DNA from: a virus | Lineage: Duplodnaviria > Heunggongvirae > Uroviricota > Caudoviricetes | Reading direction: 5' to 3' (one strand) | Length of the DNA: 6,610 nucleotides | IMG/VR virus record: IMGVR_UViG_2706794697_000006 | Part shown: piece by piece, positions 1 through 6,610 of the stretch | How the letters are laid out: each line of letters starts with the position of its first letter | How positions within the stretch are numbered: the stretch's first letter is position 1 | Position numbers and translations under genes: made by a program | Notes under the pieces: model-generated | What the model was told of the DNA's origin: nothing | Seen by the model: the letters and a program-made list of their open reading frames with translations, nothing else | Database searches by the model: none

Positions 1-140
1 CATTGAGATTTTCTACAATCGTCAGCGTCGTCACTCTCGTCTGGGGAATATCTCCCCGGCAGCCTTCAGGGAAAAATATCATCAGATGGCTGCTTAAAAA
101 AAGAACAAATGGTAGTGTCCGCTATTGCCAGTACACCTCA
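1..140 (+). mobile_element. IS3-family insertion sequence, right-end fragment (copy A); body lies left of the window
   Basis: Bases 1-140 are the exact reverse complement of 6471-6610. They contain the 3' end of a transposase ORF and end in ...GCAATAGCGGACACTACC...TCA-type terminus (TG...CA ends typical of IS3 family). The two flanks diverge immediately after base 140 / before 6471. Confidence 0.8.
2..97 (+). CDS. IS3-family transposase (OrfB-type) C-terminal fragment; 5' end outside window
   Basis: Frame starting at base 2 translates to IEIFYNRQRRHSRLGNISPAAFREKYHQMAA then TAA at 95-97. This resembles the conserved C-terminal tail of IS3-family DDE transposases (from memory, not searched). 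Confidence 0.75.
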   Translation: MEIFYNRQRRHSRLGNISPAAFREKYHQMAA

Positions 141-150
141 GGATAGCGGT

Positions 151-194
151 CATGTGATGCCGGTTTCCCGGTAACTCAGCACCGGTATCTGAGT
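151..194. repeat. Stem-loop pair module X1 (hairpin 160-171 plus hairpin 174-194), related to module X2
   Basis: CCGG/CCGG 4-bp stem with TTTC loop (160-171), then ACTCAG/CTGAGT 6-bp stem with a 9-nt loop (174-194), preceded by ATGTGATGC. A second copy of the same architecture lies at 372-418. Confidence 0.5.
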
Positions 195-320
195 CAACGT
201 TTTCTCTACTGGGTCATTTCCGATACGCCCTGCCTGCTGACAGGCTTTCATCACATCTGAAAATATAGCACCCTGACTGATACTGTAGTACCTAAGGTTC
301 CAGAAACTGTGATGTATCCG

Positions 321-347
321 GCACAGAAAAGCCCCTCCGGAGAGGGC
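321..347 (-). terminator. Candidate intrinsic terminator (minus strand)
   Basis: Minus strand reads GCCCUCUCCGGAGGGGC (imperfect GC-rich hairpin, 331-347) followed by UUUUCUGUG (plus-strand A-run 327-330). The stem has one bulge. Confidence 0.35.
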
Positions 348-371
348 TGGAGAGTGGCGCTATGTGCCATT

Positions 372-418
372 GCATGATGCCGGGTGCCTCCCGGTGAATT
401 CAGTACCAGCACCTGAAT
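372..418. repeat. Stem-loop pair module X2, related to X1
   Basis: CCGGG/CCCGG 5-bp stem (380-394), then ATTCAG/CTGAAT 6-bp stem with a 9-nt loop (398-418), preceded by GCATGATGC. Relative to X1 the second stem carries a compensatory C-G to T-A change. Confidence 0.5.
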
Positions 419-544
419 CCGCGATTATCCCATATACCTACTCGCTGATTGCCCCTCCGCACAGGGGGATTCACCATGCCAGTTTCTTTTAACAAACTCC
501 CCGCAAAACAGACAACTGTCAACCGTCTGAATTGTGAGACATTT

Positions 545-584: not shown

Positions 585-661
585 TGGCGCGTTGTACTGG
601 ATTCGAACCAGTGACCGATTGCTTAGAAGGCAATTGCTCTGTCCGGCTGAGCTAACAACGC
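585..661 (-). tRNA. tRNA-Arg, anticodon UCU (reads AGA); phage-borne rare-codon tRNA
   Basis: Minus strand folds as a 77-nt cloverleaf: acceptor GCGTTGT/ACAACGC, D-stem GCTC/GAGC, anticodon stem ATTGC/GCAAT with loop CTTCTAA (anticodon TCT), variable loop CGGTC, T-arm ACTGG-TTCGAAT-CCAGT, discriminator G, encoded CCA. Confidence 0.9.
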
Positions 662-715: not shown

Positions 716-925
716 NNNNNNNNNNNNNNNNNNNNNNNNNNNNNNNNNNNNNNNNNNNNNNNNNNNNNNNNNNNNNNNNNNNNNNNNNNNNNNNNNNNNN
801 NNNNNNNNNNNNNNNNNNNNNNNNNNNNNNNNNNNNNNNNNNNNNNNNNNNNNNNNNNNNNNNNNNNNNNNNNNNNNNNNNNNNNNNNNNNNNNNNNNNN
901 NNNNNNNNNNNNNNNNNNNNNNNNN
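716..925. other. Run of 210 N (assembly gap or masked sequence)
   Basis: Directly visible in the sequence. It hides the 3' end of the methyltransferase gene and the 5' part of the adjacent tRNA. Confidence 1.
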
Positions 926-1898
926 GCCCGAGCGCCAGTGCCGCTTTCACTGTCGAACCCAACCCCATGAAAAAATCTGCAATCAGGTCACCCGGACGAC
1001 TGCTAGCGCTGATTATCTGCTGCAGCATTTCTGCCGGTTTTTCGCACGGATGTTTCCCGGGATAGAACTGCACCGGTTTATGCGTCCACACATCGGTATA
1101 CGGCACCTGCACCGTCACGCCAAAATACCGCCGCAGATGTTTATATTCACTCAGCAGCTCCGCATACTGCCGGTTCAGTGAGGTATACGTATCCACCAGC
1201 TGGTGGTGGAGCTTTTCCAGTTCACCACGCCGATGCTTCTCTTCTGCCACCCGGGCAAACAGCGCCTGTAATTTCAGATAATCGCTTTCATTCGGCAACT
1301 GCCACTGACCGGCACTGAACCAGTGCGACACCATGTTTTTCTTTCCTGTGGCATCTGCAATCTGTTTTGCCGTTATCCCCAGGGCAGCTCGCGCATCACG
1401 AAAGTAAGAAATCAGCGGGGCCATCACATGCTGTTTCAGTGCACTGCCCTTCGCCGCATACCCGGCATCTTTCGGACGATACGGCCCCTGATAATGTTCC
1501 GCGAACAGAATGCGCTCTGTGGCGGGGAAATACGCCCGCAGGCTTTCCTTGTTGCATCCGTTCCAGCGTCCGGACGGCTTCGCCCAGATAATATGGTTCA
1601 GCACACTGAAGCGTTCACGCATCATGATTTCGATATCAGATGCCAGGCGATGACCACAGAACAGGTAAAGACTTCCGGCAGGTTTCAGCACCCGCCAGAA
1701 CTGCGCCAGACACTGGTCCAGCCACTTCAGGTAATCATCGTCGCCCTTCCACTGGTTATCCCAGCCCTCAGGCTTCACTTTAAAGTACGGCGGGTCCGTG
1801 ACTATCAGGTCAACAGAATTTTCGGGTAACGACCGGATAAATTCCAGGCAGTCGGCGTTGATTAACTCACAACTGGATATTTTTACAGTATTAAGCAT
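926..1898 (-). CDS. DNA methyltransferase (N6-adenine/N4-cytosine, DPPY class), orphan; C-terminus lost in the N-run
   Basis: ATG at 1898. The translation contains IVTDPPY (catalytic motif IV) near the N-terminus and HPCEKP plus DFFMGLGST (AdoMet-binding-type motifs) later. The ORF-track extension through the N-run and over the tRNAs (543-925) is an artifact. No obvious Shine-Dalgarno precedes the ATG. Confidence 0.85.
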
Positions 1899-1992
1899 GG
1901 ATCATTAAGCCTGTCTCTGATAGGCTCATTCTGCTTTTGCGCAAAGCAGTGGGCCTGAGGTTTGCTTGTGAACCCAACGCATGAGCAGATGG

Positions 1993-2019
1993 CTGGTGGG
2001 TGCCCCTAACACCCACCAG
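1993..2019. repeat. Perfect 10-bp inverted repeat CTGGTGGGTG / CACCCACCAG with 7-nt spacer
   Basis: Seen directly at 1993-2002 and 2010-2019. It is not followed by a U-tract on either strand, so it is not a canonical terminator. It lies in the 150-bp non-coding gap upstream of the methylase start. Confidence 0.6.
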
Positions 2020-2034
2020 CCGCCCATTTACCAC

Positions 2035-2062
2035 AAATAAAAAAGCCTTCACTGCGGAAGGC
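2035..2062 (-). terminator. Rho-independent terminator (minus strand) overlapping the stop of the small ORF at 2049-2246
   Basis: Minus strand: GCCUUC-CGCAGU-GAAGGC hairpin (plus 2045-2062) followed by UUUUUUAUUU (plus-strand A-run 2035-2044). Confidence 0.7.
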
Positions 2063-2246
2063 GTCTGTAACAACCGAACTGATAGTCTGCCAGACCCGCC
2101 ATAACCAGCTGGGTCAGTATTAACTGGCAGCGTTCGCGTGAAAGGTAAGTATTCTGCGCTATCTCCCCGACTGTCGCCGGTTCGGTAACGCTTAATTCAT
2201 TAAACACCACTCTGGCGGTTTCTGTCATATCCTGCTGTTTTAGCAT
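2049..2246 (-). CDS. Small hypothetical protein (65 aa), possible winged-helix DNA-binding regulator
   Basis: ATG at 2246 preceded by AAGGA about 6 nt upstream. The segment TVGEIAQNTYLSRERCQLILTQLVMAGL looks like a helix-turn-helix recognition region, and size and composition resemble FaeA/PapI-type small regulators. This assignment is by eye only. Confidence 0.5.
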   Translation of the reverse strand: MLKQQDMTETARVVFNELSVTEPATVGEIAQNTYLSRERCQLILTQLVMAGLADYQFGCYRRLPQ

Positions 2247-2365
2247 GTCTTTTCCTTTTCCGGTTAACGTGACACACCAATAACTCTTGTCGAAAAAGCC
2301 AGCAAGCTGAAAGACAGGTATTCACCGCCACCAGCGCGTTTACTGTACTGACGCGATTTCAGTCA

Positions 2366-2390
2366 TAAAAAACCCGCTCGGCGGCGGGTT
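2366..2390 (-). terminator. tR'-like intrinsic terminator downstream of the late promoter
   Basis: Minus strand: CCCGC-CGCCGA-GCGGG hairpin (plus 2373-2388) followed by UUUUUU (plus-strand A-run 2367-2372). It lies about 50 nt downstream of the predicted PR' start. Confidence 0.7.
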
Positions 2391-2437
2391 GTAGAAACTC
2401 TTCTAACGTCAGGCATAAAACGCCCATCGTTATAACG

Positions 2438-2465
2438 AATTTACCACAGATTCCGGAAAAATCAA
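2438..2465 (-). promoter_or_regulatory. PR'-like late promoter (sigma-70) just downstream of Q; expected site of Q engagement
   Basis: Minus strand TTGATT (-35, plus 2460-2465), 16-nt spacer, TAAATT (-10, plus 2438-2443). TAAATT is the -10 hexamer I recall for lambda PR'. The position between the Q stop and a terminator matches lambdoid late-control architecture. Confidence 0.5.
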
Positions 2466-5206: not shown

Positions 5207-5236
5207 AAATAAAAACAAAAACCCGCCGAAGCGGGT
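5207..5236 (-). terminator. Rho-independent terminator at the 3' end of the hok mRNA
   Basis: Minus strand: ACCCGC-UUCG-GCGGGU hairpin (plus 5221-5236) followed by UUUUUGUUUUUAUUUU (plus-strand A-rich run 5207-5220). Confidence 0.8.
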
Positions 5237-5305
5237 TAAGTGTGGGTGCATTGAGGATGCCTGCCCCATCAGAGGTGGCGAGGGATTTCTCCCCCGCCTG
5301 GTCTC

Positions 5306-5461
5306 TTACTCCTCAGGTTCGTAAGCTGTGAAGACAGCGACCTCCGTCTGGCCGGTTCGAATTCGTACCTCGCAGAGGTCTTTCCTCGTTACCAGTGCCG
5401 TCACTATGACGGTTAAACAGATGACGATCAGGGCGATTAACATCGCCTTTTGCTGCTTCAT
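5306..5461 (-). CDS. hok: Hok-family type I toxin (51 aa membrane peptide)
   Basis: Translation MKQQKAMLIALIVICLTVIVTALVTRKDLCEVRIRTGQTEVAVFTAYEPEE, which matches HokD/RelF of E. coli as recalled. ATG at 5461 is preceded by GGAGAAGCAGGCT. Confidence 0.9.
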   Translation of the reverse strand: MKQQKAMLIALIVICLTVIVTALVTRKDLCEVRIRTGQTEVAVFTAYEPEE

Positions 5462-5518
5462 AGCCTGCTTCTCCTTGCCTTTCGGCACGTAAGAGGCTAA
5501 CCTAGATTTGCCGTTCAT
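5306..5518 (-). CDS. mok: mok-like reading frame (70 codons), in-frame N-terminal extension of hok
   Basis: ATG at 5518 in the hok frame adds MNGKSRLASYVPKGKEKQA upstream of Hok. The 70-codon length and arrangement match my recollection of mok loci. Confidence 0.55.
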   Translation of the reverse strand: MNGKSRLASYVPKGKEKQAMKQQKAMLIALIVICLTVIVTALVTRKDLCEVRIRTGQTEVAVFTAYEPEE

Positions 5519-5575
5519 AGATTGAGCCTCAGATTAATGTTAAGCGTCTTGCCGGACGCGTAATGTTAACTGGGG
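5510..5575 (+). ncRNA. sok: Candidate sok-like antisense RNA (position inferred, boundaries approximate)
   Basis: Plus strand opposite the mok start. Possible promoter TTGCCT (5475-5480), 17-nt spacer, TAACCT (5498-5503). Possible terminator hairpin GCGTC-TTGCCG-GACGC at 5544-5559 followed by a weak U-rich stretch. No clean terminator, so this is weak. Confidence 0.25.
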
Positions 5576-5612
5576 CTTTTCTCTATCTGCCTTTTGGTGT
5601 TCATGCCTGAGA

Positions 5613-5665
5613 CAGATAGCCTCAAGCACCCGCTGCAATTCTACTTAACTCTCCTTTTCCCGCAA
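5613..5665 (-). promoter_or_regulatory. hok promoter and mRNA 5' end carrying the fold-back partner of the 3' fbi element
   Basis: Minus strand TTGCGG (-35, plus 5660-5665), 16-nt spacer, TAGAAT (-10, plus 5638-5643). The predicted 5' end GCAGCGGGUGCUUGAGGCUAUCUG (plus 5613-5636) is complementary to the mRNA 3' region (plus 5241-5258) with one bulge, and resembles the GCUUGAGGC 5' motif of hok mRNA. Confidence 0.55.
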
Positions 5666-6470: not shown

Positions 6471-6610
6471 TGAGGTGTACTGGCAATAGCGGACACTACC
6501 ATTTGTTCTTTTTTTAAGCAGCCATCTGATGATATTTTTCCCTGAAGGCTGCCGGGGAGATATTCCCCAGACGAGAGTGACGACGCTGACGATTGTAGAA
6601 AATCTCAATG
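6471..6610 (-). mobile_element. IS3-family insertion sequence, right-end fragment (copy B, inverted); body lies right of the window
   Basis: Exact reverse complement of 1-140. The terminus faces into the window. Confidence 0.8.
6514..6609 (-). CDS. IS3-family transposase C-terminal fragment (copy B); 5' end outside window
   Basis: Mirror image of the 2-97 fragment, with the same translation ...EIFYNRQRRHSRLGNISPAAFREKYHQMAA. Confidence 0.75.
   Translation of the reverse strand: MEIFYNRQRRHSRLGNISPAAFREKYHQMAA

Follow-up and report, generated by a model that had tools for sequence, protein, structure and literature searches.

The stretch of viral DNA considered here (IMG/VR record IMGVR_UViG_2706794697_000006; 6,610 nt, referred to as the window) holds, on its minus strand and in order from low to high coordinates, the gene of a DNA adenine methylase, a small open reading frame (ORF) for a 65-aa protein and a Q antiterminator gene; all genes of interest are on this strand. 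The region belongs to the late operon of a lambdoid prophage (decayed in the window copy), where it forms the promoter-proximal part. An intact E. coli prophage, L001, carries this region with 98% identity; there an antitermination protein is followed by a hypothetical protein (65 aa), the DNA-methyltransferase (349 aa), tRNA-Ile, tRNA-Arg and, at some distance, holin and lysozyme. The stretch 926-2470 was matched in 3171 of 5426 complete E. coli genomes. The methylase, a structured RNA leader directly before it, the small ORF and an invariant element upstream of the latter form a conserved, separable module (Table 1).

Table 1. Features of the window; the genes and elements of the module are given first, the surroundings after them.
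Feature	Coordinates	Strand	Basis and details
M.EcoGII-family beta-class N6-adenine DNA methyltransferase	926..1898	-	324/349 expected codons visible; Pfam N6_N4_Mtase 1.4e-35
65-aa winged-helix protein ORF	2049..2246	-	Shine-Dalgarno (SD) AGGA 2256-2253, 6 nt before ATG
Leader domain 1	1981..2027	-	long irregular hairpin AUGGGC-GGCUGGUGGGUG...CACCCACCAGCC-AUCU-GCUCAU; upper stem = inverted repeat (1991-2021)
Leader domain 2	1899..1975	-	long-range helix 3, GGGUUCACAAGC (1975-1964) with GCUUAAUGAUCC (1910-1899); encloses hairpin ~1921-1957
Invariant promoter-shaped element	2269..2307	-	TTGCTG 2305-2300, 17 nt, TATTGG 2282-2277 (TAYNNG in relatives), then GTGTGTCAC
Second hairpin + U-tract	2035..2062	-	stem 2062->2045, then U6AU3; terminator scan
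tR'-like intrinsic terminator	2361..2390	-	AACCCGC-loop-GCGGGUU (stem 2390->2371), then U6; terminator scan
Candidate late promoter PR'	2426..2465	-	-35 TTGATT 2465-2460, 16-nt spacer, -10 TAAATT 2443-2438 preceded by TG; read from sequence
Q antiterminator gene, 273 aa	2471..3292	-	Pfam Antiterm PF03589 1.6e-53; PHROG 'anti-termination protein Q-like'; antitermination protein in L001
rusA	3669-3289	-	
DUF968 gene	4728-3670	-	
hok/sok locus	5306-5631	-	Hok/Gef Pfam 3e-23; sok RNA Rfam 112 bits; complete toxin-antitoxin type
Masked N-run, 210 nt	716..925	.	hides methylase 3' end (stop expected 849-851) and tRNA-Ile by homology with L001
tRNA-Arg (UCU)	585..661	-	ARAGORN; Rfam tRNA 70 bits; next late-transcript gene; sole visible tRNA

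Methylase: The Pfam match spans residues 29–324 of the product; TDPPYF occupies residues 34–39 (DPPY at 1796-1785) and FMGLG, the FxGxG of motif I, residues 310–314 (971-957), and the motifs stand in the beta-class order (N-terminal DPPY as motif IV, central target-recognition domain, C-terminal FxGxG as motif I). Identity to M.EcoGII was 302 of 324 residues (93%) for the window protein, the last ~25 residues of which are masked, and 331 of 350 (95%) for the L001 orthologue, which at 349 aa has the length of M.EcoGII; the reference was the sequence printed in the SUPREM supplement (Supplementary Table S1, PMC11551740), the text of which has extraction errors ('NHHIWAK' where all 131 genomic copies read 'NHIIWAK'; stray spaces), so that the computed identities are slight underestimates. 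On these identities the window methylase is an orthologue of M.EcoGII, and the central gene of the locus is already known. Position 926, taken as a boundary in an earlier reading of this DNA from its letters only (the sequence-only reading), is an artefact of the masked N-run, and the gene is expected to end at ~849. The same reading had described a DPPY methylase without a restriction partner, as was found: the motif is in place, and no restriction-enzyme gene is present in the window, in L001 or in the phages SfV and LLS. From its L001 counterpart the window methylase differs in four residues, S197G, V306I, S313L and M321L; residue 313, in motif I (FMG-L-G), is Ser in 127 and Leu in 3 of 130 relatives, and Gly at residue 197 (~1308-1310) occurs in 8 of the 130.

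Two M.EcoGII papers (PMC5778455, PMC7544214) describe the enzyme as methylating adenine whatever the surrounding sequence, in RNA as well as in double- and single-stranded DNA; as belonging to a very large family and lying in a well-defined E. coli prophage; and as not expressed in the lysogen and deleterious under constitutive expression. From plasmids it is expressed and active alone, according to the first (PMC5778455). The ~93% homologues are listed as non-specific, with no methylation signal in O111 lysogen methylomes (PMC6602927).

65-aa protein: A 65-aa ORF with a good ribosome-binding site between two terminators had been reported by the sequence-only reading and is present (2246->2049); its supposed winged-helix character was borne out by structure prediction, and it is conserved. 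An AlphaFold2 model built on a 22-sequence alignment (predicted local distance difference test, pLDDT, 89) has the topology H1-strand-H2-H3-beta-hairpin, with helices at 4–16, 26–33 and 37–49, a short strand after the first of them and the hairpin at 53–56/59–62. Foldseek returned the IclR winged-helix domain 2g7u (TMq 0.82), MarR/OhrR (0.75) and, further, O-methyltransferase dimerisation domains and SelB, none at E<1e-3 in PDB or in the viral library BFVD, where the matches were likewise generic; the protein is confidently predicted to be a generic winged helix. It is kept as an ORF of 62–67 aa in more than 30 species, in Escherichia, Salmonella, Klebsiella, Kluyvera, Citrobacter, Enterobacter, Buttiauxella, Mangrovibacter, Mixta, Proteus, Providencia and Plesiomonas. 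Helix 3 of the protein (RCQLILTQLVMAGL) and an N-terminal DMTE motif are conserved, and the wing is variable; RCQLILTQL(V/A)MAGL and DMTE are constant in amino acids with third codon positions free to vary, and the small ORF is a real protein-coding gene.

Family searches with the small protein: The protein falls into PHROG 331 (1.4e-37), of function class 'unknown'. All Pfam matches were below cut-off, TrmB at 18.0 bits (cut-off 25.6), MarR_2 at 14.7 bits (27), DprA_WH and HTH_24 lower; TrmB, the NCBI name on many copies, was rejected on this comparison with the Pfam gathering threshold. PF04703 (FaeA) was not among the Pfam matches at E<=1, a search in which HMMER filters can drop very weak matches, and the assignment to the FaeA/PapI kind found no support; nor was there a Pfam match to HTH_3 (Xre-type helix-turn-helix). 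A profile search of 1.84 billion representative proteins gave a narrow family (87 representatives at E<=1e-3) with no bridge to any named family; a sequence search of solved structures gave nothing meaningful (best E 0.63, YraP), and NCBIfam and PADLOC gave noise only. A Z-alpha lead (a few Foldseek matches at E~1e-2) was dropped, the Z-alpha contact residues being absent or unconserved. Database calls of 96–106 aa for the small ORF are over-calls, with indels of non-multiples of three between the upstream element and the ATG. A divergent 86-aa relative (…HMTEEAKAFL…EIAKHAHMSIACRQFILML…) was seen after the invariant upstream element in one viral contig (L201), a piece that ends before the methylase position. 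In a non-exhaustive search of the literature on M.EcoGII or the Stx late region, no description of the small ORF or of the leader was found.

Element upstream of the small ORF: CTTGCTG, 10–11 variable bases and CAGAGTTAYNTGTRTGTCAC are common to all loci in the interval from tR' to the small ORF, with flanks that diverge across genera. In an exact-pattern scan of viral contigs the element occurred only before the small ORF, the start of which lies 42–47 nt (mostly 43–44) downstream and is followed by the methylase in 72 of the 72 cases with enough sequence; phage LLS, without the small ORF, is also without the element. Its geometry is promoter-like, with about 30 nt, SD sequence included, from the -10-like hexamer to the ATG. 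Readings of the element as a LexA box, a sigma-54 promoter or a CRP or IHF site were rejected by eye on the alignment for misfit of spacing or key bases, and that as an RNA hairpin was rejected for a short CUG(G)/(C)CAG pairing without covariation. The invariant element together with the invariant recognition helix of the protein suggests a candidate autoregulated promoter–operator pair.

Late promoter and terminators: The PR' candidate scored 8/12 in the consensus scan, under the threshold; AACGAT (2431-2426), downstream of its -10, is taken by us to resemble the lambda PR' pause element. The tR'-like terminator proposed earlier was called by the scan (-11.2 kcal/mol, z -2.6); a U-run hairpin precedes the module in related loci too, and SfV annotates a terminator at the same place. 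No Rfam small RNA family matches the short PR'-tR' transcript of the window. The second terminator-like site was also recovered by the scan, but as a weak fold; the stop UGA of the small ORF (2051-2049) is formed by the last loop base and the first two bases of the 3' arm of this hairpin. In Enterobacteriaceae-type loci a G+C-rich stop-codon hairpin of 6–7 bp is kept with compensatory changes, the stop lying in the loop.

Leader of the methylase: Conservation over the ~135 nt before the methylase AUG (1899-2034) exceeds that of the small ORF in its 3' half. The perfect inverted repeat of the sequence-only reading is present, with arms of 12 + 12 nt rather than 10 bp (1991-2002 / 2010-2021, 7 nt between them); its hairpin folds at -28 kcal/mol (z -6.05), and 0 of 200 shuffles were as stable. 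The structure was derived with RNAalifold (ribosum scoring, plus a default run), and pairs were counted on 31 sequences. Helices 1 and 2 of domain 1 are paired in 95–99%, four pairs being double-changed in at least 3 lineages; the stem reads GACUGUAAAAGUG/CACCUUUACAGUC in Proteus and GGCUGGUAAGUG/CAUUUACCAGCC in Plesiomonas, and since these divergent arms still pair, it has been kept by compensatory change in separate lineages. The 3' strand of helix 3 is the 12 nt abutting the methylase AUG (11 pairs, five double-changed, 89.7% paired). Over the whole leader 93.5% of cells pair, against 29–42% with the partners slid by 1–3 columns; 10 pairs are changed on both sides, and the covariation score was reached in 0 of 500 column shuffles. 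In the cells of the helices G·U outnumbers A·C by 119 to 17, an excess by which the structure is selected in the sense-strand RNA, not as a DNA palindrome or in the antisense. The minimum free energy fold of the window leader has z -3.4. A sequence profile of the leader matched 244 of 255 collected loci, and in 238 of these the match lies immediately 5' of the start of a methylase; against Rfam 15 no minus-strand match to the leader was obtained at E<=1 with the window and five divergent loci. The earlier suggestion that the inverted repeat is an operator does not fit these data: relatives keep it as an RNA hairpin (compensatory changes, G·U), and it persists in LLS without the small ORF.

Start of the methylase: No four-base SD core is present at -13 to -4 in any of the 31 leaders, and in 28 of the 31 UGAUC(U/C), one strand of helix 3, abuts the AUG. 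The 3' end of E. coli 16S rRNA reads ...GGAUCACCUCCUUA-3', and UGAUCC is complementary to its GGAUCA; with this complementarity, and at the normal position of a full-length SD duplex, UGAUCC is a plausible weak non-canonical ribosome-binding element. The simplest reading of the arrangement would be translational occlusion of a harmful enzyme by helix 3. A 60-aa ORF overlapping the leader (2073-1891) was rejected, single-base leader indels breaking its frame in relatives; a 4-codon upstream ORF, MIHA (AUG AUC CAU GCU UAA, 1891-1905, minus strand), overlapping the methylase start, is of E. coli type only, its frame being broken in other genera.

Linkage: Counted from the small protein, 31 of 34 species-level loci have a methylase start 339–356 nt beyond that of the small ORF, with a spacer of ~150 nt; this spacing holds at 41–55% identity of the small protein and behind at least three Q types. 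Counted from the methylase, the small ORF lies 347–349 nt upstream in 75 of 76 viral contigs; a second scan of viral contigs with a methylase alignment found the same close relatives and added nothing. The module occurs across Enterobacterales, behind different Q types; its carriers include Stx2a and Stx2c phages, 1720a-02, phiP27, SfV, cdtI and mEp460. In many Stx2a and Stx2c phages it is directly upstream of stx, and in SfV it is orf47/orf48, with annotated terminators on both sides. The late order Q, terminator, small ORF (replaced in LLS), methylase, tRNAs or lysis genes is common to L001, SfV and LLS. In a Buttiauxella prophage (L002, 4053-5662) the small-ORF/methylase module is separated from a Q of different type (PF06530) by two genes in reverse orientation, for products of 170 aa (probably a membrane protein) and 356 aa, neither of which has a match in Pfam or PADLOC; in LLS a hairpin again stands just before the leader.

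Proposed explanation: On balance we find it probable that the locus encodes a late anti-restriction methylase under layered silencing, with the small protein as a candidate module-specific, autoregulated regulator. Q antitermination would drive the module, RNA polymerase from PR' reading through tR' and the second terminator, and the methylase is most likely made only after this Q-dependent read-through, as the gene order and the literature on the silence of M.EcoGII indicate. It would then mark progeny phage DNA at many adenines, and this would give protection against many restriction enzymes in the next host. Since growing cells are harmed by the enzyme, silencing in the lysogen appears to be threefold. 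The first layer would be tR'. The second would be the weak terminator hairpin at the stop codon, the action of which would depend on the ribosome at the small-ORF stop: a ribosome terminating there would cover and melt the hairpin, and while translation of the small ORF follows closely on the polymerase, a lower efficiency of termination is to be expected. The third would be the ~135-nt leader, where helix 3 may hide the 12 nt before the AUG, including UGAUCC, the sole ribosome-complementary element there. The 65-aa protein probably binds nucleic acid, and the invariant element ahead of its own gene is the likeliest target; this would make it an autoregulated protein.

Several observations weigh against this explanation. 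The second hairpin is weak (-8.9 kcal/mol, z -0.9; 37 of 200 shuffles fold equally well) and is absent in Proteus and Providencia; its U-run, at best U8, is poor in several genera and in some loci nearly lost. The -10-like hexamer of the upstream element ends in G or C, not T, and the consensus scan was negative, so the element may not be a sigma-70 promoter. The peptide RCQLILTQL was one of the two patterns of the locus search, and part of its invariance is an ascertainment effect. Proteus/Providencia and Plesiomonas account for most of the compensatory changes in the leader, which hence represent few independent events. In LLS (L040, 1887-2465) a 192-aa ORF with no family match takes the place of the small ORF, the leader and the methylase being retained; in L030 the small ORF is stopped at codon 23 before an intact methylase; L053 is without the small ORF and without the 5' arm of the hairpin; PhiR5_1 and L020 retain the small ORF without a methylase; and in L225 (1744-1990) the leader is deleted and a methylase of different N-terminus (MDIYKSKG...) begins ~30 nt after the small ORF. 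With losses and replacements on both sides, neither the small ORF nor the methylase is strictly required for the other. Finally, S313L lies inside motif I, which leaves the activity of the window copy uncertain; this copy, in a fragment bracketed by IS600, may be an inactive or weakened allele.

Other explanations would give the small protein a different part. The methylation-dependent switch of the sequence-only reading, with a PapI/FaeA-type co-regulator and a methylase that sets a site-specific pattern over 1900-2050 for a heritable ON/OFF state, is hardly credible now. The small protein has a predicted winged-helix fold and roughly the length of PapI or FaeA, its ORF adjoins an adenine methylase, and immediately before the methylase ATG stands a conserved GATC; but PF04703 is not matched at E<=1, the inverted repeat behaves as an RNA hairpin, and the GATC is explained by RNA, as part of helix 3 and by complementarity to the 16S 3' end. 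The methylase, moreover, is an M.EcoGII orthologue and is not expected to give differential site protection; an enzyme of this type, non-specific and silent in the lysogen, leaves no site-specific heritable pattern such as a Pap-type switch needs. The partners of PapI and FaeA are Lrp and a methylase specific for GATC, and their place of action is a set of paired GATC sites before a fimbrial operon; the window shares with them a small winged-helix-type protein near adenine methylation, whereas here the setting is a phage late operon, the methylase is of non-specific type and no Lrp-type GATC pairs were identified. A functional analogue of the controller (C) proteins of restriction-modification systems, binding 2269-2307 or the leader RNA and timing or capping the methylase, either by repressing read-through in the lysogen or by licensing translation late in infection, is conceivable, though doubtful. 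The fixed spacing and nearly universal linkage, kept in different genera and with different Q types, the invariant helix 3 of the protein beside an invariant nucleic-acid element, and the sense that a dedicated regulator would make for a methylase harmful if mis-expressed and without a normal ribosome-binding site all speak for it, and some winged helices bind RNA hairpins, SelB, itself among the fold matches, being one. C proteins are of the Xre-type helix-turn-helix fold, bind C-boxes and delay the restriction gene. Common to both is a small DNA-binding-type protein just upstream of a modification gene dangerous if untimely, with autoregulation plausible; here, in contrast, the fold is a winged helix with no HTH_3 match, no endonuclease gene is present to be delayed, and a terminator and 135 nt of RNA separate the genes. 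Methylase and leader also persist without the small ORF (LLS, L030, L053), as the small ORF does without the methylase, and M.EcoGII is active alone when expressed from plasmids (PMC5778455).

Contact between the two proteins, the small one being an antitoxin-like inhibitor or a targeting or specificity subunit of the methylase, is decidedly improbable. A small ORF of DNA-binding type before a toxic enzyme recalls the order of type II toxin-antitoxin pairs, the co-occurrence is tight, and winged helices are dimerisation modules in some methyltransferases, which were among the top Foldseek matches; but the 150-nt structured spacer and the terminator between the genes are unlike coupled toxin-antitoxin operons, the small protein diverges much faster (41–86% identity) than the methylase (59–81%), and it is lost or replaced with the methylase intact. 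M.EcoGII alone is, moreover, described as fully active and non-specific (PMC5778455). Alternatively, the small ORF may be an unrelated moron, an independent gene expressed in the lysogen, for instance a regulator of host or competing-phage genes. Promoter-like element, ORF and U-tract hairpin are the classic anatomy of a moron, the ORF is separable from the methylase, and relatives have other genes inserted at this place after Q; however, the -10-like hexamer is poor, and linkage to the methylase at constant spacing across genera and Q modules exceeds what is expected of unrelated neighbours, so that we judge this improbable.

Related systems: The window methylase shares with M.EcoGII and M.EcoGI of the E. 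coli O104:H4 C227-11 prophages (PMC5778455) the prophage location, the lack of a restriction partner and the beta-class motif order; against M.EcoGII, the window copy has S313L, S197G and a masked C-terminus. In the searched passages of the M.EcoGII papers (PMC5778455, PMC7544214) there is no mention of antitermination or tRNA context, and the searches made found none there of a small upstream ORF or a structured leader. With the lambdoid late operon (lambda 6S RNA; StxS of Stx phages, PMC7547250) the window shares Q, a constitutive-looking promoter, a nearby terminator and cargo before the lysis genes; the cargo here is methylase and tRNAs, in relatives stx, and the window type puts the small-ORF/methylase module between tR' and the tRNAs. 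Leaders that sequester the ribosome-binding site (lambda cIII alternative structures, RNA thermometers) likewise have a conserved helix pairing the bases before the start codon, the opening of which expression would require, whereas here there is no Rfam family, and the occluded element is UGAUC(C/U), not GGAGG.

Neighbouring features: The Q of the window is of the long form (273 aa) with a zinc-finger region of the DnaJ type (Pfam DnaJ_CXXCXGXG 5.9e-07, under the gathering score). Just downstream of the hok/sok locus an isrK-like Rfam match was seen below threshold (5216-5297); downstream of the tRNAs an Rfam match to the small RNA STnc100 lies at 319-508 (minus strand; 123.6 bits, gathering 47), and a second, weaker one at 92-280 (minus strand; 21.8 bits) is sub-threshold. 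At both ends of the window (1-140 and 6471-6610) the same 140 nt occur, inverted relative to each other; they are from the 3' end of IS600 (IS3-family) and comprise the transposase C-terminus ...FYNRQRRHSRLGNISPAAFREKYHQMAA* and the terminal repeat; with such ends, either a 6.3-kb prophage fragment is bracketed by copies of the insertion sequence, or the contig broke in them.

Significance: M.EcoGII is a common laboratory reagent for non-specific marking with N6-methyladenine, and on how its natural host keeps so harmful an enzyme silent there have been only guesses (PMC5778455). The control architecture around this known enzyme, two terminators, a leader that would occlude the ribosome-binding region and a winged-helix protein, is apparently undescribed; it is defined and conserved, which makes the silencing question directly testable, and the leader is a candidate new structured RNA motif. 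It is unlikely, in our estimate, that winged-helix protein, invariant element and leader constitute a dedicated, previously undescribed licensing circuit for a toxic non-specific methylase; in such a circuit the small protein would bind either the leader RNA or the DNA element, translation of the methylase would be confined to late transcription driven by Q, and the whole would resemble a C-protein-type controller assembled from other components and directed at an orphan phage enzyme, with the leader as a new class of cis-regulatory RNA. The distribution of the architecture is wide, in 3171 of the 5426 complete E. coli genomes and near stx in Stx phages. The virion DNA of phages with the module, Stx phages included, is predicted to be heavily adenine-methylated, which would affect their host range with respect to restriction systems.

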